A stretch of 64,000 bases of DNA from a virus, in IMG/VR virus record IMGVR_UViG_2936028420_000001, positions 1,094 through 65,093 of that record, one strand, 5' to 3'. Within the stretch, counting starts at the first letter, position 1. The number at the start of each line of letters is the position of its first letter. The notes under the pieces are model-generated. The model did no database searches. It was not told where the DNA came from and saw only the letters and a list, made by a program, of their open reading frames with translations. This document shows positions 7,375 through 33,270 of the stretch, piece by piece. A program made the position numbers and the translations under genes.

Positions 7375-7607
7375 CCACCAAGGCCCAGCATCTCCAAGTG
7401 ATCCGCCGCTATGCGGACGTGCGCGGCTCCGCCGGCAGCACGAACGATGCACTCAGGATGCTCTTTGTCCGTCGCGGGATCGAGCGCACCTTGACGCCCG
7501 ACGCGATCCACGAACTGGCAATGATCCTGATCCGCAACAGGATGCTTCACAACCGCTTTGCGGCCGAGAGCCGCAAGCACCACAGGAGAGCGCAGCTCAT
7601 TGCTTAG
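7371..7607 (+). CDS. Hypothetical phage protein
   Basis: GGAGG RBS; coupled ORF. Confidence 0.65.
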   Translation: MTTKAQHLQVIRRYADVRGSAGSTNDALRMLFVRRGIERTLTPDAIHELAMILIRNRMLHNRFAAESRKHHRRAQLIA

Positions 7608-7693
7608 GTTCACCTTAGAGACTACCGCGCTGACGATCGCCATCACGATCATCATCGTCGGGACACTGGCTTAACCATCACAGGGACCATCAC

Positions 7694-8806
7694 ATGCCCA
7701 CCATCACACTACGCAACCAGCAGACGCTGGATAATTGGCGCAAGCGCCTCGCCGGCGAGGAGATCAAGACCTACGAAGCCGATCCAGACATTGGCTATTA
7801 CCGACTTCGCAAGAAGGACATCAAGACCAACGAGGTCTGGTGGACTCCGGTTGCCTACTTCATCGACGGCGGCAAGCTGGTCGGCGTGATCGGCGACCGC
7901 AACATGAACGAGCGTGAGATCGGCGATTTGTGGCACTCGGTTTCCGCGTATCCGATTCCGGAGGAAATCTTCTTCGCCTTCGAGGATCTAGTCGAGGTGC
8001 CGAATGCGGACTGGCCGGCCGGCCTGCGCGGCGAGCCGAAGCGCCCGCCGTTCGCGAGCAAGGCCGAACCGACCGCGACGCACACCCAGGTGGCCGGCAT
8101 CACTGGCACAGCGGTCCCCGCCGCCAACCGCGAGGTCGCCCGCTCCGACAACGCTCCGCCTGCCGAGGAGGCGATACCGCTCGACCAGCAGCACAAGACG
8201 GCAATCGACAATGCCATCGCCGCTGCGCCGAAGGCGGTACCGACCACGGCGGAGGAGGCGGCCCTGGCCGAAGGCTCCAAGAACCGGATTGCCGAGCTGC
8301 GCCTCGCTGCAGCAAGGGACGGCAAGGCGCTCTACGAGCCGATGTACCGTGCCTACACTGCGGAGCAGAAGAAGTGGTCTCCGTTGATTGCCGCTGCCGA
8401 GACTGCGGAGAAGGCGCTGGGCCGGTTGGTGCTGACCTTCCGCGAGAACGAGCGCAAGCGCGTCCTCAAGGAGCAGCAGGAGGCGGCCGCGAAGCAAGCC
8501 GCGATCGACGAAGCCAACGCGCGCGCTGCCGACCGTGCCATCGCCGCCGGCAAGCCTGAGCCCGCGCCGGTGGTTGTCGAGACGGTAGCGCCCGCAGCGC
8601 CGGAGCCGGTCAAGCCGACCTATGGCACCCGCAGCGTCAAGGCCGAGCTCAAGACCCACCTCGACGAGATCACCGACTACGATGCGGTCTACGCCTACTT
8701 CAAGGGCACGGATCCGGTGAAGGCGTTGCTGACCACGTTGGCAAAGGCGGCCATCACCGCCGGCCGCACCGTGCCCGGCACCAAGACGAGGGAGGGCCTG
8801 ATCTAA
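7694..8806 (+). CDS. Coiled-coil phage protein (possibly Gam/Gp157-like recombination accessory)
   Basis: 370 aa, long Ala/Glu/Lys helical C-half; heads recombination module; function by context only. Confidence 0.6.
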   Translation: MPTITLRNQQTLDNWRKRLAGEEIKTYEADPDIGYYRLRKKDIKTNEVWWTPVAYFIDGGKLVGVIGDRNMNEREIGDLWHSVSAYPIPEEIFFAFEDLVEVPNADWPAGLRGEPKRPPFASKAEPTATHTQVAGITGTAVPAANREVARSDNAPPAEEAIPLDQQHKTAIDNAIAAAPKAVPTTAEEAALAEGSKNRIAELRLAAARDGKALYEPMYRAYTAEQKKWSPLIAAAETAEKALGRLVLTFRENERKRVLKEQQEAAAKQAAIDEANARAADRAIAAGKPEPAPVVVETVAPAAPEPVKPTYGTRSVKAELKTHLDEITDYDAVYAYFKGTDPVKALLTTLAKAAITAGRTVPGTKTREGLI

Positions 8807-18739: not shown

Positions 18740-19777
18740 TCAAACCCCCTGGTCGCGGAGCTTCGTCCAGCGCTGCCAGCCGGTGTAGGCCAGCGCGGCA
18801 AGCGCAATGACGGACGCCGCGATTGCGATTGCGGCCCACAGGTTCGGCGGGACGCCCAGGAACGGCTTGACGGTGTGAACGATCGCGGTGGCGCTGTCGG
18901 CCGCGACCTGCACGGTGGTGATGGTGTCGGAGGCCTGCGCCACCTTGTCGGCGACGTCTGAGATGCTGACGGTGTGGGTCTCAGTGTTGCCGTTCTCCGC
19001 CATCTTCGATGCCGCGCCGATCACGGTGGGCACCGCGGTCGAGATGACGCCCTTCATGATCTTGGAGTTGCCGAGGGTCTTGTTGTTGGTGTCGGCGCCG
19101 CGCGGCGCCTCGACGGGCGCCTCGATATCCGGCATGGCGTCCGACCAGCGAGCCACCCACACGGAAACCTCGTGCATGCCGTTGGTGCCGCCGTTGACCA
19201 GCCGGCGCACGCGCTCCGTCATGCCCTTCTTGGCGGGACCGACGCAGCCCAGCGCCACAAATTCAGCGACCGCCACCTCGAAGCTGATCTTGGGATCAGC
19301 GAGCAGTGCCGGATTGTCGGCGAGCTCGGGATGGCCGGTCATCTCGCCGATGCGCTCGTAATTGTCGCGCCCGGTCAGCTGCAGATCGCCGCCGCCACGG
19401 TATTTGTACCCGTCGCCCGGCAGATGATTGCCGAGTTCCTTGGCAAGCTTCGGCGAGCTTGGCAGGTTGTAGACGCGCTCGAACAGCGCCACCTCGTTAT
19501 GGGCGAGCCCGGCCGCCTCCTGCGGTGTGACCTTGGCCGACGACTTGCCCGCGCCGAACACCTCGACGATGCGCTCGGCGCGATAGTTACCACTCTCGCG
19601 GACGATGGTGCCGGCGCCGTTCTCATGGCTGATGTTGGCCATAAGTTGCACGACCACCTTGGGATCGTCGATGTCGTGCTCAGCGAACACTTCCTCCGAG
19701 ATCGCGCAGATGGTGTCGATCTTCGCCTGCGGCGCTCGCGGCCACATATGGCGAAGGGTCTCCGCTTCGAGTTTCAT
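18740..19777 (-). CDS. GH19 (chitinase-like) endolysin with C-terminal TM segment
   Basis: NISHE..G...RE..NY, DGYKYRGGGDLQLTGRDNY, RRLVNGGTNG. Confidence 0.85.
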   Translation of the reverse strand: MKLEAETLRHMWPRAPQAKIDTICAISEEVFAEHDIDDPKVVVQLMANISHENGAGTIVRESGNYRAERIVEVFGAGKSSAKVTPQEAAGLAHNEVALFERVYNLPSSPKLAKELGNHLPGDGYKYRGGGDLQLTGRDNYERIGEMTGHPELADNPALLADPKISFEVAVAEFVALGCVGPAKKGMTERVRRLVNGGTNGMHEVSVWVARWSDAMPDIEAPVEAPRGADTNNKTLGNSKIMKGVISTAVPTVIGAASKMAENGNTETHTVSISDVADKVAQASDTITTVQVAADSATAIVHTVKPFLGVPPNLWAAIAIAASVIALAALAYTGWQRWTKLRDQGV

Positions 19778-19789
19778 GGTGATGGCTTT

Positions 19790-22700
19790 CTAGTGTGATG
19801 GTTGTAGGCGCTGCACTTCCGCGCGAGCGTGGTTCTGCACCTCGCGAATTTTGTCTCTTAGCTCCGTCTCACTCAGGCTCTTGTTCTGGCGCAGGCCCTT
19901 GATCCGCTCATCGGCGCTCTTGAAGATCGATGCCTTGGTGGTCGGTGCCTCGCTCAGGAACTGCCGAGCCTCATCGGTATTGGTGCCGCCCTTCAGGTCT
20001 TTGCGCGCGGAGTTGATGCCTGCCTTGTCGTCGAGCGCCTCTTGCCGCTGTTCGTAATAGAGCGCGCGGTCGGCCTCCGGACCCACCTTGCCGACGAAGC
20101 GGCGCAGGATCGGCGTCTTTTCTGGCTGCCACTCGCCGCCGGTCGCGGTGTTGTAGAGCGTGTCCGCGATGCCCTTGGCGAAGCGGCCGACGCCGCCGGT
20201 GACGGCCTGCAACACATGGTCGATGCTGGCCGGATGTACGTCGATCGCGCCCGGCTGGTAGCTGCTGCCGCCGCTCCATGCGTTGAGGTCTTTCGCGGCT
20301 TCCTTCGAGAACGCGGAATTGCTCTTGAAAGCCTGCGAGGAGTCGGGCCGCACGCCTCGGTTCTTGTCCTGCTCCGGATAGAGCGGCTTGCCGGTCCAGT
20401 CCCGGTTGAACTCGATGTGGAAGGCCGGCCGGAGCGCGGAGGGAATGATATCCATCCACGTCGAGCTCTCCTCGCCCAGCGGGTTGAAGGCGCTCAGGAT
20501 CGAATCCATGATCGCGCTGGCAGCCTTGCCGGGCTTCTCCTTGCCCATCGCGACCGAGACGGCATGCGAGCCGATCACGGCAAACGGCGAGAAGCCGTAG
20601 GGCAGGGGCACCTTCAGATAGCGGTGCCCGCCCATCATGAACACGAGGTTCTTGTCGCGGTCCCAACTCGGGATCTTCATATAGTCGGAGACGCCGGCCT
20701 CGTCCGTGTCGCTGGCGAGGATCGAGTACAGCGTCGAGAGGGCGGCAGCTGCCGCGAGCGCGCCGACGGCCTGCCACACCCGGCGGTGACCGAGCGCGGT
20801 GGTCATGCGGGCGATGCCCTGGACGCCAGCATTGGCGAACATATAGAGCGCGGAGATGGCACTGCCGAGCTCGCCCTTCTTGTTGAAGTCGACCGTCAGG
20901 TTGCGCGCGAGCATCGCGGCGTCGGCCGTCGGGATTCCAGCTTCCTCCGCGGCCATGAAGGCGGCGAGGCGGGTTGCGTTCTCGATTCCGCCGCCGGCCA
21001 CCTCCAGCGCCTTGCCGGCCTTGTCGCCGATATCCTTGAGGGTGTTGACCGGGCCGCCCTCGAGCCGCTTGAGCTTCCGGCCCACGTTGGTCTCGATGGC
21101 GTCCGGATCCTCGATGCCGAAGAAGCGCACCCGGCCGCCCGCCTTGTCGAACCGGTGGAAGGCGTCGACATAGGGATCACCCGGCGCGGCGCCGGCGATG
21201 GCCTTCATTGATCCCTTCATCGCGCCCGGGATGTGCTTGATGAAGTTGCGGACGAAGCCGCGCTGCTGCTGCGCCTGCAGGTTGATGAACGCCTCGCCCA
21301 TGTCGCGGGCGAAGTTCGGAATCATGAACTCCGGATTGAACGAGGTGGCGAGCTTTGCCATCGTGTGAGTGATCGCGGAATAGGCCCGGATCAGCGCGTG
21401 GACGTTGGCGGTGCCCATGTTCTTGAGGCCGCGCGCCAGATTGAGCCCGTCGGGCCCGTGCAGCGCGATCGTGATGGTGCGGCCGTCAACCTTGGTCGAG
21501 AACTCGTTGTCCTTCAGCGCCGGCATGTTGTCGGGGATGGTGGTCACGAGCCCGGTATTCGGGTCGATCCGCTTAATGGGCTGCCGGCGGTTGATGGTCC
21601 AGCGGGCCGGATCAGGGTTGGCGCGGACAAATTGCAGGAAGGTGTTGCCCACACGGTTCTTTTCGGCCCTGACGATCGCCATCTCGGCTTGCATGATCGA
21701 GTAGGCGAGGGGAGAGGCGGCATCTGACTTGCGGCCGAAGGCGTTCTTGGCCTCCTTGCCGCGCACGTTCATGCCGCTGCCCTGGCGCGACATGGAGGCC
21801 TCGTCCTCGCTGCCGTCGGCCCAGCCGCGGAGCGGGACGTAATACTTGTAGCCGTTGTTCCAGGCATCGAAGGTGTCACGATCGATCAGACCGGCATCGA
21901 ACAGGGTGCGGCGGGTCTTGGCGTTGAGCGCGTCGATCATGCGGGCGACGGCGAGATAGTCCGGCAGTTTGCCAGCGTTCCGCAGGTCGCGGATGACCTG
22001 TAGTGCCTCGTTGGTCGACCAGCCGGAGCCGCCGACCTTATCGTGGTCCCTGATGGCATCGTAGAAGTCGTGGCCGGGCGTGTACATGGTGCCGATCGCG
22101 TTGTTGCGCTCGGGCGCGTGGCGGGCCTTGAGGAAGTTGTCGAGCTTCTCCACGTCGATGTCGCGCGCCTTCATCTCTCGGATGAGGGGATCGATGTGGT
22201 TCTCGGTCAGGGATTCCAGCCGCTGGCCGGTGCGGCCGTAGTACAGGCTCTCGGCCTGATACGCTGACTGGCTCGATGGCGCTCCAACCGACTCCTCGGC
22301 CTTCTTGACCCGCAGGAACTTGTCCTGCAGCTGCACGCGGATCTCGGTAGCGTTGATGTGACCCAGGCGACCGAGCAGCCGCGTGCGCAGGATGTCGGCG
22401 ATGGTGTTGTCGAAGGAGTTGGGGCCGCCCGGCTGGAAGGCGTTCGGTGGAGCGTTTAGCCCCAATCCCCCTTCTTCTTCTCGCGGATGGTCCGCTCGGC
22501 CAGCTTGATCGCCGCGTCGCGTCCCGCCGTCGGTTGCAGGGAACGCATTTCGGTCAAAAACTGCTCCCACGTCTCCAGGGTGTCGAACGGCCCGGGCGGG
22601 TCGATCATGTACTCGGCTGGCTTCATGGTTGGTCAGGCCCTTCTTGATGAGATCGGCGGCCTCGCTGATCGCTGTATCTATGCCGGGAACGCGCGATCGG

Positions 22701-25700
22701 AAGTCCGCATCGTCGAAATTCGTCCGATAGTCAATGAACCCGGCATCGTTGAGCACCACGTTGATGAGGTGGTGGTAGGCCGCGTTACCCTCGTCGGCAT
22801 TGATGGAGCCGGCGAGGAATGCCTCTCTGAGGGGCATTTTGAGCCGCCCTCCGATCGCAGCCGTCAGTCGCGCCACCTGATTGACCCGTGCAGTCCATTG
22901 CTCGGGCAGCATGGCCTTCGCGGTCGGGGTAACCTCGACACGGTAGGTGATGCCGTTGTGCCCGTGGGCGTAGACCGCGCGCATGCCGGGCGTGCTGGCC
23001 ATGGCGATGTCGGAATCGCTGAAGCTCCTCGACTCCGGGTGATTGTGGTGCGCGACGATATCCTCGGTGGGGTCGAGCAGGCGCGCGTAGAAGGCCGGCG
23101 AGATCGCGATGAAGCCCTTTGTGCCCTTGATGTCGCCATTGTCGACGACGTTGCCATGAGCGTCGTAGGCCATCAGATGCTCGGTGCTGGTCTCGCGGCC
23201 ATGCTGCAGAACATGCTTCTGGCCGGTTTCACCAAGCCGCCGCGCTTCGGGCGCCGGCGCCACATAGGCCCGCACGAGCCGATCCATGACGGCATCAGTC
23301 TCGGCACTCGCCAGCCCGGGCCCTGGACCATCGCCGCCCGGACCCTTGCCGGCCATCTGATCGAGGAACTTCTGGCGGTCCTCGGCCGACTTGAACTGGA
23401 AGCCCGGGATGGCGCCGTTGCCCTTGAAGCTGGAATAGTAGCCGCCGTTGGCCTTCGCCACGGCATTCATCTGGCTATAGGCGGTGCTCTCGACGCGCTC
23501 GTTCGCGGTCGCGACATAGAGCTTCGCCTTGGTCTTGGCGTGGATGGTCTCTCCGGTTTTGAAGGTGATGCCCTTCGGCGCGCTCGGCGGCGCGCCCGGT
23601 GCCCGTTGTGTCTCGGCCGGCTCCGGCTTGGCGACGGCATCGAGGAATTTCTGGCGCTCCTCGGTGGTGCCGAAACGGAAGCTTTTGGCGGTCTTGACGT
23701 ACTCGCCCTTGGTGGTCTCGACCGCTCGCATTAGCGCGCGGAATCGCTCCGGCCCGATGAAATTCTTGAGGTCGGCCGCGTGCACGTCGCCGCGCTTGCT
23801 GCTCTGCAAGGTGAAGTCGACGCCGTTGATGGTGACCTTGCCCTCGGTCGGGATGTCGATGTCGGGGGTTGCCGGCTCGAGCCGCTGGCCCATGTCGGCG
23901 TTCTCGATGCGATCGAATAGGTCGCCGATGGTCTCGACGTCGCTATAGTCGCGGCTCTTTTGCTGCAACTGCTTGGCGATATGAGCGTCGGTCTGCTTCT
24001 CCAACACGACGATGCGGGCCGAGATCGACGTGCCCGCGCGCTCGAAGGTGATCGCCGGCAGGTTCACGTCGCCGACGATATAGATGCCCTTGGCGGCCGG
24101 GCCATCCATGAACTTGTCGAACTTCGCGTCGGTTGATCCGCGCGAAATCAGCGCAACAATACGGCCGCCGTTCTTCAGGTGGCTCGCCGCCTTCTCCAGA
24201 TGGTCGATCGCGGTCTTACCGCCGGAGCCGAACGGCGGGTTCATCACGATGGCGTCGAACTTGTTGGCGCCCTTGTCGAGATTCTCGAAGCGGTCGACGA
24301 CGACGCGCGCGCCGGGCGAGGTCAGCGCCGCGCGGCTGGCGAGCGAGCTCGACGGCTCCACCAGGGTGCGCGCGGTGTCCTCGGGGAAGTAGCGCGCGAT
24401 GGCGCCGTGCCCGGCCGACGGCTCAAGGATCTTCTCGCCTGATTTGATACCGGCGAACTCGACCATCTTGAGGCCGATCGGCTCCGGCGTGGCGTAATAG
24501 TCAGTACCCTCGCGCTGATCGCGCCGGCCGGTGGTCTTGCCGTTCGCGAAATAGTGCGTCTTGGCCTTGTCGAATTCTGAGACGCTGTGCGAAAGCGCGC
24601 GGTCGATCTCCTTGCCGCCCTTGCCTTCGCCCGGCTCCGGTGCGAAGTCCCCGGCGCCGGAGAAGGCGTCGATGAAGGATTGCCGGATGGTGCGGGCCTG
24701 ATCGCCCAGGGCGAGGTTTTCCGCGGTGCCGGCGCGCTCCGCGATCTTGCCGGCGAACGTCCAGCGCTCCCAATCGGTGCCGGTGTTCATGTAGCGGAAG
24801 ATCGCATCGGACGACTGGCCGACGCGATAGATGCGGCCTTCCTGCTGGATCGAGGTGGTCGGCCGGATCGGCATACCGAGATTGAGCAGCACGCGCTGCT
24901 TCTTGCCGGTGGTGTCGTGCAGGCTGATGCCCGCCTCGCCAGCGGCCGACTGCACGATGATGATGTCGCGGCCGGAGTTGTCGTCGTTGAACAGTGCCTT
25001 GTCCAGATTCCGAACCTTGTTCGAGACGGTGCCGTTGTAGACCATGGCGTCGGGGAATGCCTTGGTCAGCTCGGCGATCGGCGCGTCATAGTCCGAGAAC
25101 TTCAGATCCTTGATGTACGGATTCTGCGCGCGGAAATCGTCGTAGAGGTCTTTCAGTTTCACCTCAGACGGTTTGCCATCCACGTAGGTGGTGACCTTGA
25201 CCGACGGCGGTACCGCGAGATCGAATGGGTTGATGCCGCCGCCCTCGTTATAGTCGTGGAACACCACGATCTTTCGGCCGAGATCGAGGGACTGCCGGAT
25301 GAACGGGACCGCCGCGCGCGCCTTGATGGCTTCGAGCAGACGCATGCGCGTCAGATAGTCGAACTGTTTCGAGATGACTTCGTGCAGCGGCCGGTACCGG
25401 CCGCCCTCGGCCTCCTGAAGGAAGCTGAGGGCTTGGTCGATCTGTTGGCCGACGGCATCGTGTGCGAGCACGAACTTGCGGTCATAGTCCTTGTCCACGG
25501 TCAGCGCTCGGCCGGACAGCGAGCCCTGCTTCTTCAGGTACTCGTGAAGCTGGCGCTCCATCACCTCGGATTTGACATCGGCGTCCGGCTTGGTGAGCCG
25601 GTTGGTCCGCATCCGGTAGCCGAGATGCTGCATGTAGAACGCGGCGCGGCCGTCGCCGGAATTGTAGCGCGATCCGGAGCGGTCCTTGTCGAACTCGAAC

Positions 25701-28700
25701 AGGTACCCCTCGGCATAGTCGAGGGAGAAGTGATATGCGAACGGCGTCGCGCTCATGAACAGCGCCTTGGGGCGCTGCTCGTCCCGCCACTTTTCGATCA
25801 GCGGCGCGGCTTTCTTCTCGAACGCTGCATAGGCCGCGCCCTGTTCGTTCTTCGGCAGATGCTCGATGCGGTCATAGTCGGCGCGCAGCACCATGCGGGC
25901 GCGCTCCGTCAGACCATCAGGGTGCTTGGTGATGGCGCGAAGCGTGCGCAGTGCTTCAGTGACGGTACCGTTCTGATCGGACGAAAGCTTGTGCGCCTCA
26001 TCCGGAACGACCAGATCCCACTCGCGATCAGCGAGCGTACGGTTGGCACCGAGATTGGCATAGGTGGTGCCGACCAGACCTTTTCGACCATTGCTCGCGG
26101 TGTCGTCGAGCACCCGCATGTCGAGACCAAGGTCTTTGGCCGACTTCACCCAATCCATCAGGATGCCCTGCGAGGGCGCGACCACCAGGGTGTTCGTCTT
26201 GCCCTTCATCGCGAAGCGCTTGATGACGCCCAGGCCGGAATAGGTCTTGCCGGTACCGGTGCCGTTGGTGAACAGCATGCCGTGGCCGTCGGGCTTCGCG
26301 TAGCGCTGCTCGGCTTTCTGCACGTCGGTGTGCTGCTCGGGGAACAGCATCGGCAGCGTGTCGGCAATGTTGCCGAGGTCGCCGGGCTTGACCGCGATGC
26401 CTTCGGCCTTGCGCTGACGCTCGCGGCGCGCGTTTAGGTCGGCGTCTTTTTGAGCATTTCGGACAGCTTCATCAGTTGCCCCGTCGTCAAACGAAAATCC
26501 CTTCTCGCTATCGTGAGAGCTTCGGCTCGACTCTCGATCGGCGGGATCGCTACCCTCATCGACGGGTTCGCGAGCAGGAAGTTCGAGATGGCCTGATGCT
26601 CCCACAACAGGGGCATGATCTTGAGGTACGCGCTCGCCACTTGCGGGTCGTTCGTCTCCCGCGTCAGCCGGGCTTCCTCGTTCTCCAGCGCCTTGTCCAG
26701 TTGATCCTGCGGCAGCGGGAACATCTGCTTTGCCCAATCCGTCGCGAGCTTCTGGCTCTCCGCGATCTGATTCCAGTACGTCGCTGCGGCTTGGTGCATC
26801 GATAGTCTCCTTGCCGGAGGTCACGTCCTCGGTGAACCGGCGAATATACGGCTTCATCGCCCGGATGGCGTCAGCATCCATGCCGGCGACGCTCAGATGG
26901 CGCACCAGCGCCCGCACCATGGTGGCGAGATCGGCACCACCGCCACTGAAATGCGCTACGCCAGCCTTGAAGAAGGGCAGGGCCTGCCGGTATTTGTCGT
27001 CATCGAGCGTGAACGGCTGCTCGCCCTCGGCTAGACCTTTGTCCTTGCCGAACAGTTTGCCAAGCCCTTTTGCCACCTGATCGATGTCAAGTGACATTTT
27101 TGGCGCGAATTCTGCGTCAATCGCCTGATCGAAGATGTCGTCGAAGGCGTCCTTCGGCGGAGCCGGCGGCTTCTTGGCCACCATGTCGAGCAGGTCGGTC
27201 TGCTTGTGACCATCGCCGAACAGGCCGTCGTCGGCCGCCTTCTGGTTGGCCTTCGGCTTGAGCGGTGCATCGGCGCCGCGCTGCGCCATGGTCTTGTCGG
27301 CGGCCTTCTCGGCGCCTGGAATGACGGTCTGCTGCTTGTTGTCGGCGCCGGTCTCGGTGATGACGGCCGGTTTCTTCGGCTCGCCGCCCGGCGGAGTGAT
27401 GTTCTCGCCCGGAGTACCCCACTGCACATTAAGATGATTTCCAGCAACGGGCGCTGTAACGAACATGACGTGCTTGCGATCAGGAGACCACAGCGCTGAT
27501 CCCTTGCCGTATTTCGCCTGAGTCCAACCGCGTGATTCCGCCGTGCTGCCGAAAAGCTCTGCGCTTGTGGTCGGTGCGATATCCGTGTCCATACGTCCGG
27601 CGGCGATCTCGCTCTCGACGTGATCGAGGAAGGAGTCGACCGTCTCTTTGCTCTCGGGCTTCGGCGGAGTGGCGCGAACCGGCGACTGTGCTTCTTCGCC
27701 GCGGAGCCGGCGCCGCGCCTCGATCATCATGGCGCGCGCGGCTTCGCGTCCGAACACTTCCTCGTAGCTGGCGGCGGTATCGACGGCCTCGCGTCCATAG
27801 GTGGAGCGCTCGCCCTGCAATGCCTTGATGGCATCCTCGGGCTTCTGCTTCTTCTTGAGCTTGGCCTTGCCGCTGCGGATGTCGGCGATCTTCTCGTCGA
27901 TCGCACGCACCTGGGACAACGCGGACATGATGCCGTTCATGCCCTCGTCGACGACGCCGACAACATTCTCGACGTCGAAGTGCTCGCCATCCTCGATATC
28001 GAAAACCGAGCGGCCCTCGCGTGCGAGTGCATCGAGCACCTTCGGGTCAGGTGCTGGCCATGTGTCGTTGAAGTCCCACGGGCCCTTGCGCGAGAGCGTG
28101 ACGTGCACGGTCTCGTCGCTGTCTCCGGCTGGAATGTCGGCGCTGGTACCGTCTAGATCGCGGAGGGATCGCTCGGCTTCGGCGGAATCTTCGGCGCGGC
28201 CTTCGCGACCTGTACGGGCGGCGTTGCTGCCGGTGTCGGGCTGTTCGCCTTTGGCGTCGGGCTCGGTGCGTCCGGCGTCATTCCGCCGGTCCCCGCCTTC
28301 TGCGCCAGCAACCGCGTCGCCTGGGCGAGGCTCGCGAGGCGCAGCTTCTTCAGGCCCGTGGCCTTCTGCGCCTTCGCGTGCAAGGTTGTCGCCATAGCCT
28401 GATGCTGCTTGCGCGTAAATCTCATCGTCAACCTCGTGACCATAGATAGCATGGAATTCGGCCTGCGCATCCTTTTCTTCGGAGATCAGCTGCATGACCG
28501 CCGTTTCGACCGCCTCGGGCGCGTCGAGCTCGGTCGACGACATCAGTTGCAGCGCGCGCGCCTTGATCTCCGGCGCCAAGTGGCCGTGGCCGGTGCGCTC
28601 GAGCGCATCGACGAACTCTTGGATCTTCGCTTCTTCGTGAGCGCCGCGTTCAGCCTCGGCTGATTGCTCGGCCTTGGTCTTGGTGTCCTCGTGGCCTTCC

Positions 28701-31700
28701 GGATAGCGATGCTGTCCGCGGATTCCGTCATCGATCGCGTCGAGAAATTCCGCGACCGTGCTGGTGCCTTCGGCGGAGCCTCGGAAATAGCCTGCTTCCT
28801 CGGCCGCCTCGCGCGCGCGGTCGAGATCCATGCCGCCATCTTTGACCAGCTTGCGGCGGGGCGGGAACCCCTGCATCGCGACGGAATGCTTGTGGGCATC
28901 CATCACCGCGAGTTCCGGATGCGGCTTCAGGCCGCCCTTGCTGGCGATGAATTGGAGCAGGTTTTGGGGCTCTTTCGCGCCCGTTTTTGCCGTTTTGTCC
29001 CGGCCGCGCCCTTGTTGCGGTGCAGCAGGTTCCGAACCTATGTTATTGACTACGGCCGGAGTCGCCTGTTTGGTACCGGCTAGGGCAGCATCTTTAGGAA
29101 GCGAAGGGTTACCCCCCAGCGCATCTTGGCCGCCCTGTAAGGCCTTGTCCGGAGTGTGATGGCTCTCGGATTTGGTTAAGGCGGGCTCCGGAGTGTGATG
29201 GCTCTCGGGGCCCGCCGCACCAATCTCTTTGACCGGTTTCGTTGTGTCGGTTTGCAACCAAGCCTGAAACTTCTCAGGCGTCATTGCAACAACGTGACCA
29301 ATGCGACTTTCGCCGTGGTCACTGTACGAATCCGCATAGGCCCGCATCGCTGCATCGGGCCCTGGGAATCCGATCATAATCTTGTGTTCATCCCACGCGC
29401 CCGTTTTCGGGTCGTGCTGATCGATGACGAAGATATCGCCGCCGGGCCCAAGATGTACGTCGAGCGGCTGACCGTCGCCGCCGACTGTGCCCTTAATCCG
29501 ACCGTAAGGGTACTTGAGCGTGACCTCCCACGGATTACCGTCTGGATCGACGCCTTTACGAACTTGCCCGGCGCCGGTCTCGACCGAGATCGAGTGCTTG
29601 CCGACAAGCCCGAGAGCGGGGATTTCAAGGTGAGTGTGCCGGTAGTTTTCAGCTTCCGCCTGGGCCTGCGATTTAGGCTCGTCAGGCCGCGCCTTCATCG
29701 CGGCATCGATATGCTCGACGGACTCAACTCGGATTGGTTTGTCGCGAGTGCCGGCGCCTAACTCGGGAGAAACTTCCCGTCCGGCCCGTGTTGCATCGGC
29801 GGCGGCTGATTTCTCGTCGGAGAGAGAAGCTTGTTCGGAGACGTCATTCCTCGACGCAACCGCTGCCTGATCGCCCCCTTCGACAGCCCCATTCTGATTG
29901 CCGCTTGCGATGCGTTTTCCGTCACCCCATTCACTGTTACCATCACGACGTTCCTGCGGTTCTCCGCCTGCTGGGCTCTTGTCGCCCACTGCATGTTCCC
30001 CGGAACGTAACCCTTGTCGTTCTCGATCCGATCCAGCGACAGATCGGGGCTCGGACGTCGACCCACCGCCATCAAGAACGTCGGGAAGTCGTTTTCCCAC
30101 TCCAGAGCCATCTTGATCCCCCTCGCTCCGTAGTTCTTGTACGCGTGATCCGTCGGGTTGTTGCACCTCCCCTTGATGTTCTTCCAGATCTTGTATTCCG
30201 GCAGCCTGCTCATCCCGTGCTTGGTTGGGTACGTCATTCTTCTCTCCCGGCGATGGTCGCGACCTGCCAGTTTTCATGGCGGCCTGATACGCCTTGCTCC
30301 GCTGTTCCGGAGTCATAGCCTTGACCCAAGATGGGTCCCAGCCCTTCGCAATCAAGGCATCGCGCTCTGCTCGATCAGTCGCAACAGCCTCGCGAGCGGC
30401 TTTTTCGTCTGCGGTTTCCGGCTTCGCCGTATACCCCGTGGACGAAGTATCCCTCATCTGTTCATTCACAGCATTGAACAGATCGGCGTCCGACATCTTG
30501 CTGACGTCGACGCTCGGATCGAACATCCGGTGCAGCTTCTCCATCTTCGCGCGCATCCGCGCGTCCATGGTGTAGTCCGCACCCATGCCCTCGCCGGTGC
30601 CGGGGGGCGGCTTGCCGGGCTCGGGGCCCTGTCCGGATCGCTGGTTGGATTGTTGGTTGCCCGCACCGCCTGGCCCAGGCTGAGGGCCGCCGCCGGGATT
30701 GGGGCCAGCGCCAGCCGCTCCAGCCTGATCGTCCCAGCCACGGCGCTGCCAGTCGCGGGCTTCCTGCTCGGCGCGCGCGCGGGCCGCATCCGGTCCCGGG
30801 CCGCCCATGTCGGGTCCGCCGCCAGGGAGCGCGCCGCCCGGCGCCGGGGAGGCGCCGCTAGTGTCGCTGGAGGTGTCCTGCCGGGTCTCCGGGCCCCTGC
30901 GCTCGAACGCATGATGCAGGCCGCCCATGCCGGCGCCGAGGATCAATTCCGCGATGATGCGCTTCTGATCGAGTGTGTAGCCAGCCTTCGGATCGTAGTC
31001 CTTGGCGATCTCTTGGAGGATGGCTTCCTGCGCCTCGCCGAGCGTCGTGAATGCGGCAGCGGAGACCGCGACCTTCGCGATCAGGCCCTGCGCATATTTG
31101 CCGGCACCGAGCGGCAGGCTGCCGAGCACGCCGGCGACCAGGGCGGACTTCGCCGCCGTCGCATTGGCCTCGTCGTCGGTCTTGCCTGCGGCCTTCGATG
31201 CCTCGAAGACGCTGCCGTAGGTGTCGAGCGCCATGCCGCTGGCGGCGGCGGTAAGACCGACCAGCGGGCCTGCGGCGAGCGTCGCTGCACCATAAGCGGC
31301 GATCGAGCCCGCGCCGGTACCGATCCGGCCGCCGATTGAATCCTTCTCCTGCGGCGTCATCGGCGCGACGGTTTGCGCAAAATCCTGTGTTGCCTGTCCT
31401 GCCTTGTAGAGCGTGCGATCCTGCAGCGGCTTCGCCGGTACCGCGGCGGCCGGCGCATTGACCATGCCGGTGGCATTGCCCATGGCGTCGTACTGCGGCG
31501 TCTCAGGCTGCTCGGGGATGCCGTTGTCGTACAGCGCGGCCGCGCCCTTGAGCGTGCCGCCAGCAGTCGAGATCGCGCCGTGCGGGATGCCCTTGGCGGC
31601 CGCGACCGCCTGCCGGCTGATCGTGAGCGGCGGGACTTCCGGACCTTCCGGCGTGACGGGCGTGCCGAACTTGGAGAGGTCATCCGTCGACGGCTCGGGC

Positions 31701-31942
31701 GCGGCCTCGTCCTTGACCTTCGTGCCAAAGCTTGAGAGGTCCGGCCCCTTCGGCTCGTCCGGTGCGACGTTGAAATCGACGTTGGAATCGCGCGTCGGCT
31801 TGATCGAGAGCTTACGCGCCAGCCGATCGGTCAGAACCTTGGGGTTCGACGAATACGGCTGGCCGTCGTCCGGCTGATACTGCTCGAGCAGGCTATCGCG
31901 AAGCTGGGATTGTCCCGATCCGAAAACGTCGTCGAAGGCCAT
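19790..31942 (-). CDS. Giant polyvalent DarB-like ejection protein: InPase-like, SF2 helicase, N6-MTase, JAB, LPD38-like domains
   Basis: 4050 aa. InPase-like ~29270-29690 (YGRIKGTVGGDGQPLDV..DEHKIMIGF); helicase NGTGTGKT/DEAH/SATP and QQEGRIYR ~24750-26330; MTase EPSAGHG/NPPF ~23990-24520; JAB HNHP..S..D ~22960-23260; C-terminal ENATRLAAF..ARNLTVDFNKKG. Confidence 0.9.
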   Translation of the reverse strand: MAFDDVFGSGQSQLRDSLLEQYQPDDGQPYSSNPKVLTDRLARKLSIKPTRDSNVDFNVAPDEPKGPDLSSFGTKVKDEAAPEPSTDDLSKFGTPVTPEGPEVPPLTISRQAVAAAKGIPHGAISTAGGTLKGAAALYDNGIPEQPETPQYDAMGNATGMVNAPAAAVPAKPLQDRTLYKAGQATQDFAQTVAPMTPQEKDSIGGRIGTGAGSIAAYGAATLAAGPLVGLTAAASGMALDTYGSVFEASKAAGKTDDEANATAAKSALVAGVLGSLPLGAGKYAQGLIAKVAVSAAAFTTLGEAQEAILQEIAKDYDPKAGYTLDQKRIIAELILGAGMGGLHHAFERRGPETRQDTSSDTSGASPAPGGALPGGGPDMGGPGPDAARARAEQEARDWQRRGWDDQAGAAGAGPNPGGGPQPGPGGAGNQQSNQRSGQGPEPGKPPPGTGEGMGADYTMDARMRAKMEKLHRMFDPSVDVSKMSDADLFNAVNEQMRDTSSTGYTAKPETADEKAAREAVATDRAERDALIAKGWDPSWVKAMTPEQRSKAYQAAMKTGRSRPSPGEKNDVPNQARDEQAAGIQDLEEHQGEVQQPDGSRVQELRSEGDQDGSGVGKRLPDVLDGGGSTSEPRSVAGSDRERQGLRSGEHAVGDKSPAGGEPQERRDGNSEWGDGKRIASGNQNGAVEGGDQAAVASRNDVSEQASLSDEKSAAADATRAGREVSPELGAGTRDKPIRVESVEHIDAAMKARPDEPKSQAQAEAENYRHTHLEIPALGLVGKHSISVETGAGQVRKGVDPDGNPWEVTLKYPYGRIKGTVGGDGQPLDVHLGPGGDIFVIDQHDPKTGAWDEHKIMIGFPGPDAAMRAYADSYSDHGESRIGHVVAMTPEKFQAWLQTDTTKPVKEIGAAGPESHHTPEPALTKSESHHTPDKALQGGQDALGGNPSLPKDAALAGTKQATPAVVNNIGSEPAAPQQGRGRDKTAKTGAKEPQNLLQFIASKGGLKPHPELAVMDAHKHSVAMQGFPPRRKLVKDGGMDLDRAREAAEEAGYFRGSAEGTSTVAEFLDAIDDGIRGQHRYPEGHEDTKTKAEQSAEAERGAHEEAKIQEFVDALERTGHGHLAPEIKARALQLMSSTELDAPEAVETAVMQLISEEKDAQAEFHAIYGHEVDDEIYAQAASGYGDNLAREGAEGHGPEEAAPREPRPGDAVAGAEGGDRRNDAGRTEPDAKGEQPDTGSNAARTGREGRAEDSAEAERSLRDLDGTSADIPAGDSDETVHVTLSRKGPWDFNDTWPAPDPKVLDALAREGRSVFDIEDGEHFDVENVVGVVDEGMNGIMSALSQVRAIDEKIADIRSGKAKLKKKQKPEDAIKALQGERSTYGREAVDTAASYEEVFGREAARAMMIEARRRLRGEEAQSPVRATPPKPESKETVDSFLDHVESEIAAGRMDTDIAPTTSAELFGSTAESRGWTQAKYGKGSALWSPDRKHVMFVTAPVAGNHLNVQWGTPGENITPPGGEPKKPAVITETGADNKQQTVIPGAEKAADKTMAQRGADAPLKPKANQKAADDGLFGDGHKQTDLLDMVAKKPPAPPKDAFDDIFDQAIDAEFAPKMSLDIDQVAKGLGKLFGKDKGLAEGEQPFTLDDDKYRQALPFFKAGVAHFSGGGADLATMVRALVRHLSVAGMDADAIRAMKPYIRRFTEDVTSGKETIDAPSRSDVLESDRGEPEARDGLGKADVPAAAGSTGQGAGERGSPADAGDERPASGERVPQDHAPVVGASGHLELPAREPVDEGSDPADRESSRSSHDSEKGFSFDDGATDEAVRNAQKDADLNARRERQRKAEGIAVKPGDLGNIADTLPMLFPEQHTDVQKAEQRYAKPDGHGMLFTNGTGTGKTYSGLGVIKRFAMKGKTNTLVVAPSQGILMDWVKSAKDLGLDMRVLDDTASNGRKGLVGTTYANLGANRTLADREWDLVVPDEAHKLSSDQNGTVTEALRTLRAITKHPDGLTERARMVLRADYDRIEHLPKNEQGAAYAAFEKKAAPLIEKWRDEQRPKALFMSATPFAYHFSLDYAEGYLFEFDKDRSGSRYNSGDGRAAFYMQHLGYRMRTNRLTKPDADVKSEVMERQLHEYLKKQGSLSGRALTVDKDYDRKFVLAHDAVGQQIDQALSFLQEAEGGRYRPLHEVISKQFDYLTRMRLLEAIKARAAVPFIRQSLDLGRKIVVFHDYNEGGGINPFDLAVPPSVKVTTYVDGKPSEVKLKDLYDDFRAQNPYIKDLKFSDYDAPIAELTKAFPDAMVYNGTVSNKVRNLDKALFNDDNSGRDIIIVQSAAGEAGISLHDTTGKKQRVLLNLGMPIRPTTSIQQEGRIYRVGQSSDAIFRYMNTGTDWERWTFAGKIAERAGTAENLALGDQARTIRQSFIDAFSGAGDFAPEPGEGKGGKEIDRALSHSVSEFDKAKTHYFANGKTTGRRDQREGTDYYATPEPIGLKMVEFAGIKSGEKILEPSAGHGAIARYFPEDTARTLVEPSSSLASRAALTSPGARVVVDRFENLDKGANKFDAIVMNPPFGSGGKTAIDHLEKAASHLKNGGRIVALISRGSTDAKFDKFMDGPAAKGIYIVGDVNLPAITFERAGTSISARIVVLEKQTDAHIAKQLQQKSRDYSDVETIGDLFDRIENADMGQRLEPATPDIDIPTEGKVTINGVDFTLQSSKRGDVHAADLKNFIGPERFRALMRAVETTKGEYVKTAKSFRFGTTEERQKFLDAVAKPEPAETQRAPGAPPSAPKGITFKTGETIHAKTKAKLYVATANERVESTAYSQMNAVAKANGGYYSSFKGNGAIPGFQFKSAEDRQKFLDQMAGKGPGGDGPGPGLASAETDAVMDRLVRAYVAPAPEARRLGETGQKHVLQHGRETSTEHLMAYDAHGNVVDNGDIKGTKGFIAISPAFYARLLDPTEDIVAHHNHPESRSFSDSDIAMASTPGMRAVYAHGHNGITYRVEVTPTAKAMLPEQWTARVNQVARLTAAIGGRLKMPLREAFLAGSINADEGNAAYHHLINVVLNDAGFIDYRTNFDDADFRSRVPGIDTAISEAADLIKKGLTNHEASRVHDRPARAVRHPGDVGAVFDRNAFPATDGGTRRGDQAGRADHPREEEGGLGLNAPPNAFQPGGPNSFDNTIADILRTRLLGRLGHINATEIRVQLQDKFLRVKKAEESVGAPSSQSAYQAESLYYGRTGQRLESLTENHIDPLIREMKARDIDVEKLDNFLKARHAPERNNAIGTMYTPGHDFYDAIRDHDKVGGSGWSTNEALQVIRDLRNAGKLPDYLAVARMIDALNAKTRRTLFDAGLIDRDTFDAWNNGYKYYVPLRGWADGSEDEASMSRQGSGMNVRGKEAKNAFGRKSDAASPLAYSIMQAEMAIVRAEKNRVGNTFLQFVRANPDPARWTINRRQPIKRIDPNTGLVTTIPDNMPALKDNEFSTKVDGRTITIALHGPDGLNLARGLKNMGTANVHALIRAYSAITHTMAKLATSFNPEFMIPNFARDMGEAFINLQAQQQRGFVRNFIKHIPGAMKGSMKAIAGAAPGDPYVDAFHRFDKAGGRVRFFGIEDPDAIETNVGRKLKRLEGGPVNTLKDIGDKAGKALEVAGGGIENATRLAAFMAAEEAGIPTADAAMLARNLTVDFNKKGELGSAISALYMFANAGVQGIARMTTALGHRRVWQAVGALAAAAALSTLYSILASDTDEAGVSDYMKIPSWDRDKNLVFMMGGHRYLKVPLPYGFSPFAVIGSHAVSVAMGKEKPGKAASAIMDSILSAFNPLGEESSTWMDIIPSALRPAFHIEFNRDWTGKPLYPEQDKNRGVRPDSSQAFKSNSAFSKEAAKDLNAWSGGSSYQPGAIDVHPASIDHVLQAVTGGVGRFAKGIADTLYNTATGGEWQPEKTPILRRFVGKVGPEADRALYYEQRQEALDDKAGINSARKDLKGGTNTDEARQFLSEAPTTKASIFKSADERIKGLRQNKSLSETELRDKIREVQNHARAEVQRLQPSH
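22456..22626 (-). CDS. Nested 56-aa protein in +1 frame of giant gene (not in ORF track)
   Basis: MKPAEYMIDPPGPFDTLETWEQFLTEMRSLQPTAGRDAAIKLAERTIREKKKGDWG; GC3-rich in nested frame. Confidence 0.6.
   Translation of the reverse strand: MKPAEYMIDPPGPFDTLETWEQFLTEMRSLQPTAGRDAAIKLAERTIREKKKGDWG
26434..26799 (-). CDS. Nested 121-aa helical protein in +1 frame of giant gene
   Basis: AAGGAG-7 nt-ATG; natural globular composition; GC3-rich in nested frame. Confidence 0.75.
   Translation of the reverse strand: MHQAAATYWNQIAESQKLATDWAKQMFPLPQDQLDKALENEEARLTRETNDPQVASAYLKIMPLLWEHQAISNFLLANPSMRVAIPPIESRAEALTIARRDFRLTTGQLMKLSEMLKKTPT
28153..28425 (-). CDS. Nested 90-aa basic protein in +1 frame of giant gene
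   Basis: GAGG-6 nt-ATG; MRFTRKQHQAMATTLHAKAQK...; codon bias favours nested frame. Confidence 0.55.
   Translation of the reverse strand: MRFTRKQHQAMATTLHAKAQKATGLKKLRLASLAQATRLLAQKAGTGGMTPDAPSPTPKANSPTPAATPPVQVAKAAPKIPPKPSDPSAI
29758..30237 (-). CDS. Nested HNH homing-endonuclease-like gene in +1 frame of giant gene
   Basis: YKNYGARGI...SLDRIENDKGYVPGNMQWATRAQQAENRR plus C-terminal HTH-like part; GGGAG RBS. Confidence 0.85.
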   Translation of the reverse strand: MTYPTKHGMSRLPEYKIWKNIKGRCNNPTDHAYKNYGARGIKMALEWENDFPTFLMAVGRRPSPDLSLDRIENDKGYVPGNMQWATRAQQAENRRNVVMVTVNGVTENASQAAIRMGLSKGAIRQRLRRGMTSPNKLLSPTRNQPPPMQHGPDGKFLPS

Positions 31943-33270
31943 CAGGTCTCGCCCTCGTCGCCGCGATCGCTGCCGGTGTCGGACGACGCGCGCGTGCCGC
32001 GCTCCGGCTTGTTCGGATCGCGCGGTTCGGGATCAGTCGGCTTGTCCGGAGTGCTGCCCTTCGCCGGCCCGCCGTTGAACTGATAGATCTGGCCGTCCTT
32101 CGGGTTGCGGTAATACTGGCCGGGCTGGAGCTTCTCCGCGATGTTCTTGCTGGTGATGCCCATCTTGCCGGCGTCGATTGCGTTGCCGACGGTCATGCCG
32201 GGCTGCTGCGCGGCCTGCTGCGCCTGCTGCGGCGAGAGACCGAGACGGCCGAGATGTCCGTTCATGATGTCGCCCTTGGCCTTGTCGAGATCGGCCTGGG
32301 CCTTGGCGAGTCCTGCGGTGTCACCATTGGCGCGCGCCGCGCGGATGGCATCATTGTAGCCCTTGAGCGAGGGATCGCTGTTCGTCAGGCGACCGGCGGC
32401 CAGATAGAGGCTGTTCGGATCGTTCTTGCCGCTGCTGGCAACCTTGTCGGTGTCCTGCTTGAGCTTCGCGGCGAGATACTTCGTGTAGTTCATGTTGTAG
32501 GTCGCGGTGTCGCCAGCCTTCTGCGCGTTGATCGCGGCGCTGAGATACTTCAGCGTGGTGTCGTTGTTCTTGTCCGACGACTTGTCGCCACCTTCGAGAC
32601 CTTCACCGGCGCCGCTGGCGAGCGCCTGCATCGGGCTCTTGCCGGCGCTATTGCCGGCAGCCTTGAGACCAGCGCCGAGCGCGCCGCGCATGCGGTTGGC
32701 CGACTGATCGTCGACACCAAAGGCGCCGAGGATACCCTTCCGGCCCTGCATGTCCGGCGGGGCGAAGCCGCTTTGCGCCGGAGGCGGAGGCATCGCGCCT
32801 TGCGTCGGCGCAATGTTCATCGGCGGGCCGGGCGGCTGCTCCGGAGGCGGCGGTGGGATCGCGCCGGGCGCGGGAGGTGTTGCACCAGCCGGCCGGGCCT
32901 GCGGCATAGGAGGCGGCGGCATGCGCGCCTGCCCTTGGCCCGCAGTTGGATCGGGCTGTGTCGACGGATCAGGCAACGGGGGAGGCGGCGGCGCGCCGGG
33001 GCTTCCAATGTTCGGGGCGCCGGTCGGGTCGCCCATCTGGTTGACCTGCGGCATGCCCTGCCCTGGAGGAGGAGGCAACGGCGCGGCGTCGGCGCCAGTC
33101 TGTTGCATCGGCGGCATGGGAGGGCGCGAGCCCGGCTGCATCGCACTGACGCCTCCATTGAGGTCGTCCGGAGACGCGCCACTGCCGATATTCGGAGGCA
33201 TCGGCGGCGTGCTGGCGTCGCCCGAAAAGAGCGAGCCACCGCCGTCCGTGATCCAGTCGAGCAAACCCAT
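31942..33270 (-). CDS. Pro-rich ejection (internal virion) protein
   Basis: Start MGLLDW; position between ejection gene and giant gene. Confidence 0.7.
   Translation of the reverse strand: MGLLDWITDGGGSLFSGDASTPPMPPNIGSGASPDDLNGGVSAMQPGSRPPMPPMQQTGADAAPLPPPPGQGMPQVNQMGDPTGAPNIGSPGAPPPPPLPDPSTQPDPTAGQGQARMPPPPMPQARPAGATPPAPGAIPPPPPEQPPGPPMNIAPTQGAMPPPPAQSGFAPPDMQGRKGILGAFGVDDQSANRMRGALGAGLKAAGNSAGKSPMQALASGAGEGLEGGDKSSDKNNDTTLKYLSAAINAQKAGDTATYNMNYTKYLAAKLKQDTDKVASSGKNDPNSLYLAAGRLTNSDPSLKGYNDAIRAARANGDTAGLAKAQADLDKAKGDIMNGHLGRLGLSPQQAQQAAQQPGMTVGNAIDAGKMGITSKNIAEKLQPGQYYRNPKDGQIYQFNGGPAKGSTPDKPTDPEPRDPNKPERGTRASSDTGSDRGDEGET

Follow-up and report, generated by a model that had tools for sequence, protein, structure and literature searches.

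Can one phage gene hold several complete genes on its own strand, all of them read in the same second frame? The question is raised by a stretch of 64,000 nucleotides (nt) of viral DNA, positions 1,094 to 65,093 of the 67-kb IMG/VR provirus record IMGVR_UViG_2936028420_000001 (this whole stretch is referred to as the window, and its numbering is used throughout), in which a 4050-codon open reading frame (ORF), predicted to encode a giant DarB-like protein, contains four shorter ORFs, N1 to N4. The giant gene is very probably a genuine dual-coding locus, with a polyvalent protein in frame 0 and complete genes in the +1 frame that would be expressed by internal initiation, N1 being mobile and N2, N3 and N4 being old and kept. 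Selection acts on this DNA in two frames, constraining the nested frame as a folded protein and the giant frame to remain open and hydrophilic. The features concerned are the following:

19790..31942, minus strand: predicted gene of the giant polyvalent (DarB-like) virion/ejection protein, 4050 amino acids (aa), with InPase, superfamily 2 (SF2) helicase (ResIII + Helicase_C_4), N6-methyltransferase (N6-MTase) and LPD38 domains
29758..30237, minus strand: N1, predicted gene of an HNH-family endonuclease (159 aa, HTH-like tail at the C-terminus); +1 frame; phrog_3377 E=2.3e-45
28153..28425, minus strand: N2, probable 90-aa gene with a basic helical N-terminal part and a Pro/Ala-rich tail; +1 frame
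26807..26812, minus strand: Shine-Dalgarno (SD) sequence AAGGAG of N3, 7 nt before the N3 ATG
26434..26799, minus strand: N3, gene of a predicted all-helical protein of 121 aa; +1 frame; stop 59 residues before the Walker A motif of the helicase
22456..22626, minus strand: N4, probable small gene in the +1 frame, immediately following the domain of giant aa 2897-3105; 56 aa if counted from the first ATG

Composition of the nested segments

As stated by the initial annotation, each of the four ORFs runs from an ATG to its own stop, starting 1 nt into a giant codon and thus in the +1 frame, and the giant frame stays open through all of them (for N2, a further ATG at 28470 would give 105 aa; this start is not conserved). 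In the four segments the GC content at giant codon position 3 falls to 0.36-0.59 (about 0.85-0.95 elsewhere in the gene), and the peak moves to giant position 1, which is nested position 3 (0.79-0.88). The claimed shift of the third-position GC bias (GC3) to the nested frame is therefore seen directly in the GC content per position. When a blind filter for this shift is applied to all alternative-frame ORFs of the window, only these four ORFs pass, each of them in +1, and no +2 ORF does. Read in the giant frame, the segments consist for 70-82% of G/D/E/R/P/S/A and for 8-14% of hydrophobic residues, compared with 53% and 25% in the rest of the protein, which is in agreement with the hydrophilic linker that had been proposed, and the nested proteins have an ordinary amino-acid composition. 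The ribosome-binding sites (RBSs) are GGGAGAG for N1, GAGG for the N2 start at 28425 and AAGGAG with a spacing of 7 nt for N3, and a weak site for N4, matching the earlier count of three clear sites and one weaker one.

The length of these ORFs is by itself no evidence, since the region overlaps with 82 ORFs of at least 50 aa (two antisense ones have 415 and 616 aa), and since in real genes of the window 37% of the 121-159-codon stretches are open in the frame beginning at codon position 3 (5-10% for the other frame). These numbers favor the reading that the nested ORFs are chance open frames of a GC-rich gene, with no second coding layer; the case against it is carried by homology, conservation and shuffle tests. 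The match of N1 to an HNH family (E=2e-45), the start, stop and protein sequence of N3, which are kept across phages of four host genera with selection in the nested frame, the predicted fold of N3 (pLDDT 88) and its family of 428 clusters, and the GC3-shift filter, which picks out these four ORFs alone, all argue against chance. For N1 and N3 this reading is already refuted, and for the locus as a whole it retains next to no probability. The same numbers bear on the earlier argument that the nested genes are tolerated because the giant frame of such DNA is nearly free of stops. The direction of that argument is right, as shown by the open fractions and by the +1 position of every embedded gene, but the openness is not passive, as re-encoding of N3 closes the giant frame (see below).

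The detection by GC3 shift has its own limits, as it fails in AT-rich giant genes, where it gives many false candidates. A Gly/Pro-rich low-complexity stretch of the giant gene (window 30742-30817, giant aa 376-425) also has its highest GC content at codon position 1; this is a composition effect of GGN/CCN codons, with no embedded gene, and is a caveat for scans of this type.

Conservation and selection of N3

N3 is a conserved embedded gene under selection in the nested frame. The clade in which this is seen most closely consists of 11 members, the window and ten fetched relatives of the giant gene (52-73% protein identity). With tblastn, N3 is found full-length and in the +1 frame in all ten relatives; the positions of its ATG and stop are the same in 11/11 members, and a GGAG-type SD sequence is found 7-9 nt upstream. 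The Nei-Gojobori proportions of nonsynonymous (pN) and synonymous (pS) differences are 0.17 and 0.37 in the nested frame and 0.23 and 0.17 in the giant frame, corresponding to dN/dS values of ~0.39 and ~1.46, respectively. The comparison of dN/dS by frame, which had been proposed as a check, thus finds purifying selection in the nested frame. This is also visible in the codon alignment of the giant gene, where over aa 1701-1820 exactly, position 1 is the most variable and position 3 the least.

The arrangement extends well beyond this clade. A tblastn search of GenBank phages finds N3 homologs of 30-50% identity inside the annotated giant coding sequences (CDSs) of five cultured phages, namely Pseudomonas phage Skulduggery, Serratia phage Parlo, Klebsiella phage vB_KpnP_ZX1, Ruegeria phage 45A6 and Vibrio phage 1.232.O. 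The CDS coordinates give an offset of +1 in all five, and in each of them N3 starts at its own ATG behind an SD-like element and ends at its own stop, with 0 stops in the giant frame and 7-19 in the third frame. Vibrio phage D274 also matches N3 with tblastn (its frame and annotation are outside the comparison). N3 is also in the +1 frame in the IMG/VR giants L034-L038 (GC 0.44-0.66), which are four distinct ones, as L034 and L037 have identical ORF coordinates and are counted as one. With the 11 clade members, the IMG/VR relatives L014 and L015, the five cultured phages and these four, N3 is embedded in +1 in 22/22 distinct helicase-bearing giants examined, at GC contents of 0.44-0.66, with its own start and stop in every case checked and mostly with an SD sequence. 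An SD-like element ~7-10 nt before the ATG is present in 11/11 clade members and in Skulduggery, Parlo, ZX1, 45A6 and Vibrio 1.232.O, and it is the sole conserved element upstream of the N3 ATG. In comparisons of distant pairs, the nested translation of N3 out-scores the giant-frame translation in 15/15 cases (for example 67 versus 16 bits).

The openness of the giant frame over N3 is actively maintained by selection. When N3 is re-encoded with the codon usage of the giant gene itself, the giant frame is open in 0-6% of the trials for 9/10 lineages (0/2000 for two AT-rich lineages; the exception is L038, with 31%), and despite this low probability it is open in every genome examined. Selection is concluded because re-encoding closes the frame in 94-100% of the trials in 9/10 lineages and because AT-rich phages (GC 0.44-0.46) also keep the arrangement. 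The wobble positions of N3 in Vibrio phage 1.232.O have a GC content of 0.68, compared with 0.39 gene-wide, and this is a direct footprint of the second frame.

The SD sequence and ATG of N3 point to internal initiation, and the products of N1 to N4 are predicted ones. SD-like sequences can also stimulate +1 shifts, as is established for prfB, and it could be that programmed +1 ribosomal frameshifting generates truncated giants having N3 (or N4) as an alternative C-terminal domain. This would account for called proteins in which an upstream giant domain, N3 and sometimes N4 are joined in one frame (a 341-aa ORF of Bradyrhizobium lablabi, L016, and the proteins P0121, P0123, P0125 and P0142). 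However, an in-frame stop is located 2-28 codons (mostly 2-7) upstream of the N3 ATG, this ATG is invariant, the SD spacing of 6-10 nt is that of initiation, and no conserved slippery motif is visible in the sequences upstream of N3, where only the SD sequence and the ATG are conserved. The fused form of L016 comes from a broken giant gene, and for the other fused proteins the giant gene is outside the comparison. Frameshifting is therefore considered highly improbable, and initiation at the N3 ATG remains the preferred reading. In the L016 locus (7557-8582, NZ_JAFCJK010000002.1) the 341-aa ORF combines N3 and N4 with the upstream domain (window aa 1646-1711) in a single frame, and the giant frame has 8 stops; it is either a decaying remnant or a domesticated mini-version.

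The alignment-based AF2 prediction of N3 has eight helices, with a pLDDT of 87.8 and a pTM of 0.80. Fold searches of the PDB with Foldseek, VIA-wide, and of BFVD and the ESM Atlas give no meaningful match (best Z 4.7); the single real structural match is an uncharacterized homolog of 130 aa in AFDB. A profile search of metagenomes finds 428 N3 clusters at 50% identity, mostly of ~121 aa and, where checked, from short contigs. None of the best 150 profile matches listed is a giant protein, and hence no in-frame domain copy of N3 is seen among them. Pfam, PHROG and NCBIfam searches with N2, N3 and N4 give no match, the Atlas feature search for N3 and N4 gives nothing usable, and the search for related loci with the broad N3 alignment gives no conserved stretch (the close alignment gave three loci). 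N3 is rare in chromosomes, as 1 match is found when 401 genomes from the class to which the Bradyrhizobium host belongs are searched in six frames. A different context is seen in the element L032 (3562-5262), where an N3-like domain (residues 6-100) is the N-terminus of a free-standing protein of 566 aa with a C-terminal DUF6794; the element also contains an integrase gene and an HTH_17 gene and has no giant gene in its vicinity.

N1 as an out-of-frame HNH insertion

Residues 5-142 of N1 match phrog_3377 in the PHROG database (E=2.3e-45), and Pfam gives only weak HTH matches. As read from the sequence, N1 has a D-R-I-E-N motif where the classical HNH motif has D-H. Among the 13 close giant genes, N1 is present at one linker in the window, L013 and L014 and at another site in L004, and it is absent from the other 9; all copies are in +1, with the host frame open. 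The presence/absence comparison that had been suggested thus gives a sporadic distribution with two different sites. The giant frame across N1 has 0 stops, the probability of this being 0.017 under synonymous shuffles, and the selection ratios are 0.62 in the nested frame and 1.25 in the host frame.

Because N1 is found in 4/13 close giants at two different sites, it is assigned to the mobile out-of-frame HNH insertions of the ShiLan type, with predicted endonuclease activity and homing. It would be a selfish gene that is inserted into linkers and is lost wherever the host frame does not stay open. The Pfam scan of the giant protein finds no Hint or intein domain, and the giant-frame text over N1 is of low complexity, so that the insert does not have the identity of an intein, and the Rfam search over 19500-32200 gives no match at E<=1, so no group I/II intron model. 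The initial annotation had considered genes either inserted into linkers or kept within them, and both routes are found: insertion for N1, and retention for N2, N3 and N4, which are present in all 11 clade members. The image of a landing pad fits N1 and none of the others.

Four giant homologs (P0020, P0061, P0063 and P0112) have intein-type domains (PF14528 and/or PF05204). Together with N1, these homologs indicate that the same gene family hosts both in-frame (intein) and out-of-frame (N1-type) endonuclease parasites.

N2 and N4, two smaller and probably genuine genes

Searches with hidden Markov models (HMMs) built from the clade find N2 in the ten fetched relatives, L014 and L015, always in +1; L008, L013 and L014 have additional copies. 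N4 is found in the ten fetched relatives, L014, L015, phage PBC5 and Ruegeria phage 45A6, also all in +1. The N4 start that is suggested by the relatives is the second ATG, at window 22608 (M-I-D-P-P, in a conserved M-I-D-x-P), which gives a protein of ~50 aa. Its predicted fold is a helical hairpin (AF2 pLDDT 81.9), and 87 homologs of N4 are called as genes.

It is possible, although unlikely, that only N1 and N3 are real genes and that N2 and N4 are conserved linker DNA in which the +1 frame is open by accident. The frame-specific selection is weak, with pN/pS values of 0.81-0.85 in the nested frame and 0.96-1.17 in the giant frame (0.81 and 1.17 for N2), and the variability is nearly equal at the three codon positions. 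In addition, N4 has a poor SD sequence and TTG or GTG starts in some relatives, the N2 tail is low-complexity Pro/Ala sequence, and under synonymous shuffles the giant frame is open with high probability, 0.78 for N2 and 0.26 for N4. Against this, both ORFs are in +1 in all 11 clade members, and the nested frame scores above the giant frame in 34/36 pairs for N2 and in 74/78 pairs for N4. The nested GC3 is 0.84-0.86 (0.84 for N2), compared with giant-frame values that fall to 0.46-0.58, and N4 follows its domain through rearrangements into PBC5 and 45A6. The pLDDT and the called homologs of N4 also argue for a gene. N2 and N4 are thus likely but not certain to be genes.

In Nitrobacter sp. (L030:2500-3300, and L031) there is a fragmented remnant of a giant gene beside an IS110 transposase, holding a piece of the domain with the HxHP motif, an LPD39 fragment and an intact N4 homolog (a 64-aa hypothetical protein at NCBI).

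The giant ORF as one gene

The ORF at 19790-31942 is uninterrupted, and Pfam matches to InPase (3e-34), ResIII (2e-9), DEAD, Helicase_C_4, MTS and LPD38 (2e-45) are found in this single ORF; its methyltransferase domain is small. The giant has the combination that marks polyvalent/DarB-like proteins, several unrelated enzymatic domains and an LPD domain in one polypeptide of >2000 aa. On one side the gene is next to a DNA-ejection-protein-like gene and on the other side to an endolysin gene, in a module with terminase, portal and tail fibre genes. By its domain set and its position in this structural block, the giant ORF is assigned to the DarB-like polyvalent virion proteins, here of a podovirus-like soil prophage. 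It has 716 homologs at E<=1e-10, and a megablast search of GenBank phages with the giant gene gives no match. The protein is probably packaged in the virion and ejected with the DNA, as suggested by the gene context here and by analogy with another phage, JC1, for which the DarB-like giant of a related podovirus type was detected in virions by mass spectrometry with 51 unique peptides (PMC9144972).

It has also been considered that the 12-kb ORF is not one gene, such that separate genes would have N1 to N4 between them and the open frame would be an unused by-product or an assembly error. In keeping with this, the giant-frame text over the nested genes resembles non-coding translation, and the giant protein of this phage is known here from sequence alone. 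The frame is, however, open in all 22 giants, including the complete genomes of cultured phages, and the shuffles and the re-encoding indicate that the open frame needs selection. Without a stop codon, frame-0 ribosomes must continue, and the JC1 giant is present in particles. An assembly artefact, which had been named as a way in which the initial annotation could fail, is rejected. Near-identical DNA is present in soil metagenomes, and contigs of four soil-metagenome runs (4 studies), one of which may be the source sample, cover the whole giant gene with 0 differences and 0 gaps. A split gene is accordingly given very little probability, slightly less than frameshifting.

Linkage of the nested genes to neighboring domains

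Two domains of the giant frame are the constant neighbors of nested genes:

24698..26347, minus strand: SF2 helicase module of the giant, aa 1866-2415, with ResIII, DEAD and Helicase_C_4 (Pfam); constant downstream neighbor of N3
22628..23254, minus strand: conserved giant-frame domain, aa 2897-3105, with an HxHP...S..D motif; constant upstream neighbor of N4

The stop of N3 is located 51-67 residues before the Walker A motif (GTGKT) of the helicase in six divergent phages, and the giant of PBC5, which is without the helicase, is also without N3. N4 is always found at the end of the domain that is aa 2897-3105 in the window and that aligns to aa 1180-1453 of 45A6 and aa 1662-1924 of PBC5. In the window the module of N4 and this domain follows the methyltransferase; in 45A6 it precedes N3, in PBC5 it is close to the C-terminus, and it survives in the decayed Nitrobacter remnant. 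For the domain itself a JAB identity was considered from the motif; it is unconfirmed by Pfam, NCBIfam or a sequence search of PDB chains.

Because each embedded gene travels with the same neighboring domain, its product may act in trans on that domain, as an assembly chaperone, inhibitor or co-factor in the producing cell; chaperones or inhibitors of adjacent domains had been suggested by the initial annotation, and the shared travel is consistent with them. A more specific and tentative proposal, which is somewhat less probable than not, is that each embedded gene is a dedicated partner (an inhibitor, antidote, or folding or loading chaperone) of the domain that it abuts, N3 for the SF2 helicase/MTase antirestriction module and N4 for the domain of aa 2897-3105, and that the giants are built from cassettes of a domain and its overlapping-frame partner, which recombination cannot separate. 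If true, this would be a new organizing principle of phage counter-defense payloads, and hundreds of annotated giant genes would contain a hidden proteome. That N3 is strictly linked to the helicase is a testable lead on the regulation or loading of antirestriction giants, and since the N3 start codon can be removed without a change to the giant protein, clean genetics are possible.

How two frames could share the DNA

The evidence from homology, comparative genomics, frame-specific selection and fold prediction supports the initial proposal of complete same-strand genes in the +1 frame, and the following mechanism is suggested. Frame 0 would encode the ~4050-aa polyvalent protein, and the same mRNA would carry the complete +1 genes in four interdomain stretches. 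At the internal start codons, preceded by SD sequences (a weak one for N4), ribosomes would start and translate each nested gene to its own stop, and ribosomes in frame 0 would pass through the nested stretches and read them as an acidic, Gly/Pro/Arg-rich disordered linker. In the +1 arrangement the wobble base of the nested codon is the first base of the giant codon. If this base is kept as G or C, the stops T-A-A, T-A-G and T-G-A are avoided and codons for Gly, Ala, Asp, Glu, Arg and Pro are written. Embedded genes would occur only in +1 because G or C at the nested wobble base has both effects, and selection would actively keep both frames readable. N2, N3 and N4 would be old and vertically kept, moving with a flanking domain (N3 with the downstream SF2 helicase, N4 with the upstream domain of aa 2897-3105), and the embedding would make partner and domain inseparable by recombination.

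Several points weigh against this reading. The RNA runs searched for the locus include none that contains the stretch. The in-frame fusions of the upstream domain with N3 among called proteins leave a small opening for products of the frameshift type, and N3 is without functional annotation and without a structural relative beyond its uncharacterized homolog, such that its partnership with the helicase is suggested by position alone. The weak selection signal of N2 and N4 and the starts of N4, described above, belong here as well, and the Nitrobacter N4, which was considered as a free-standing homolog, is rejected as such, as it sits in a decayed giant-gene remnant and is no independent evidence.

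Comparison with known systems

Same-strand nested genes are known, for example the spanin genes Rz/Rz1, embedded in lambda-like phages, and overprinted genes in phiX174; both products come from one mRNA, and in Rz/Rz1 the partners are functionally linked. As in these systems, each nested gene here is complete, has its own start and stop, and is fully contained, in +1, in a gene of the same strand. Unlike in these systems, one host gene contains up to four unrelated genes, each of them in a linker that separates folded domains, the text of the host frame is a disordered spacer with no functional domain, and at least one embedded gene (N1) would have arrived ready-made by insertion and not by de novo overprinting. 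The embedded Rz1 class is also mentioned in the study of JC1 (PMC9144972).

The closest precedent for N1 is the ShiLan domain, an out-of-frame HNH insertion in mycobacteriophage DNA methylase genes that was first described in 2025 (Arsenault, Gosselin and Gogarten, PMC11855218). Like ShiLan, N1 is an HNH ORF in an alternative frame, the host frame is read through without stops, it is sporadic in close relatives, and it has no intein or intron features. ShiLan has a GTG start, no RBS and a proposed leaderless initiation (PMC11855218), whereas N1 has an ATG and a clear SD sequence. Its host gene also differs, being the giant polyvalent gene of a proteobacterial prophage with the insert in a disordered interdomain linker, and N2, N3 and N4 differ from ShiLan in that they are not endonucleases and are fixed rather than sporadic. 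N1 alone is a new member of this known class; with it, the strategy of out-of-frame homing endonucleases, described for actinophage methylases, is extended to proteobacterial prophages, here with a clear RBS. As with inteins and intron-borne homing endonucleases, a selfish endonuclease gene would be found inside an essential or large phage gene; unlike those, the N1 insert is not spliced out and would be translated as linker.

The giant itself resembles the polyvalent/DarB-like antirestriction proteins (Iyer et al. 2017, PMC5512222; P1 DarB) in having SF2 helicase, MTase, InPase and LPD38 domains and a position in the virion-structural block. The text of PMC5512222 does not contain the words 'overlapping', 'frameshift', 'homing', 'intein' or 'linker', and uses 'embedded' for peptidase domains only. 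The literature search finds no description of conserved embedded genes in polyvalent or DarB-like giants, so that the initial statement that no description of such a nested array was known holds for the conserved genes; for the out-of-frame HNH insertion it does not, given the 2025 precedent (PMC11855218). Embedded same-strand genes and out-of-frame HNH insertions being already known, the array of four genes in one giant is a new variant.

The arrangement suggests a low-cost rule for sharing DNA, in which one frame encodes a folded protein and the frame one base upstream encodes a disordered acidic linker, operating at 44-66% GC and with measurable selection on codon choice. The GenBank records of the five cultured phages hold no annotated feature for N3; the family is missing from their annotation because it is hidden inside a 10-12-kb gene, where ORFs of this kind are suppressed by gene callers. 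Many more embedded ORFs may be hidden in giant polyvalent genes.

Further observations in the giant genes

Further +1 ORFs with a GC3 shift are seen in L008 (2369-2707, 2762-3052, 3185-3778), L009 (4244-4567), L013 (3767-4087), L005 (2816-2995) and L012 (2450-2626). Three of these, L008 2762-3052, L008 3185-3778 and L013 3767-4087, are extra copies of the N2 family by HMM, and the remaining ones, in L005, L008, L009 and L012, are without a family match. Embedded ORFs seem to have a hot zone in the linker that separates the InPase region from the helicase region. A look-alike pair of +1 ORFs in Parlo and ZX1 was dropped, being unconfirmed by tblastn.

The antisense ORFs opposite the giant gene, of 616 aa at 24587-26437 and of 415 aa at 22487-23734 (both on the plus strand), are typical of GC-rich coding DNA, with nothing pointing to genes. 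At the InPase domain (window 29252-29668, aa 759-897) and over ~200 codons beyond it, the GC3 of the giant frame is only 0.56-0.74, compared with 0.85-0.95 in most of the gene, and this region is without a nested ORF; the low value may reflect a recent acquisition of the domain or another constraint.

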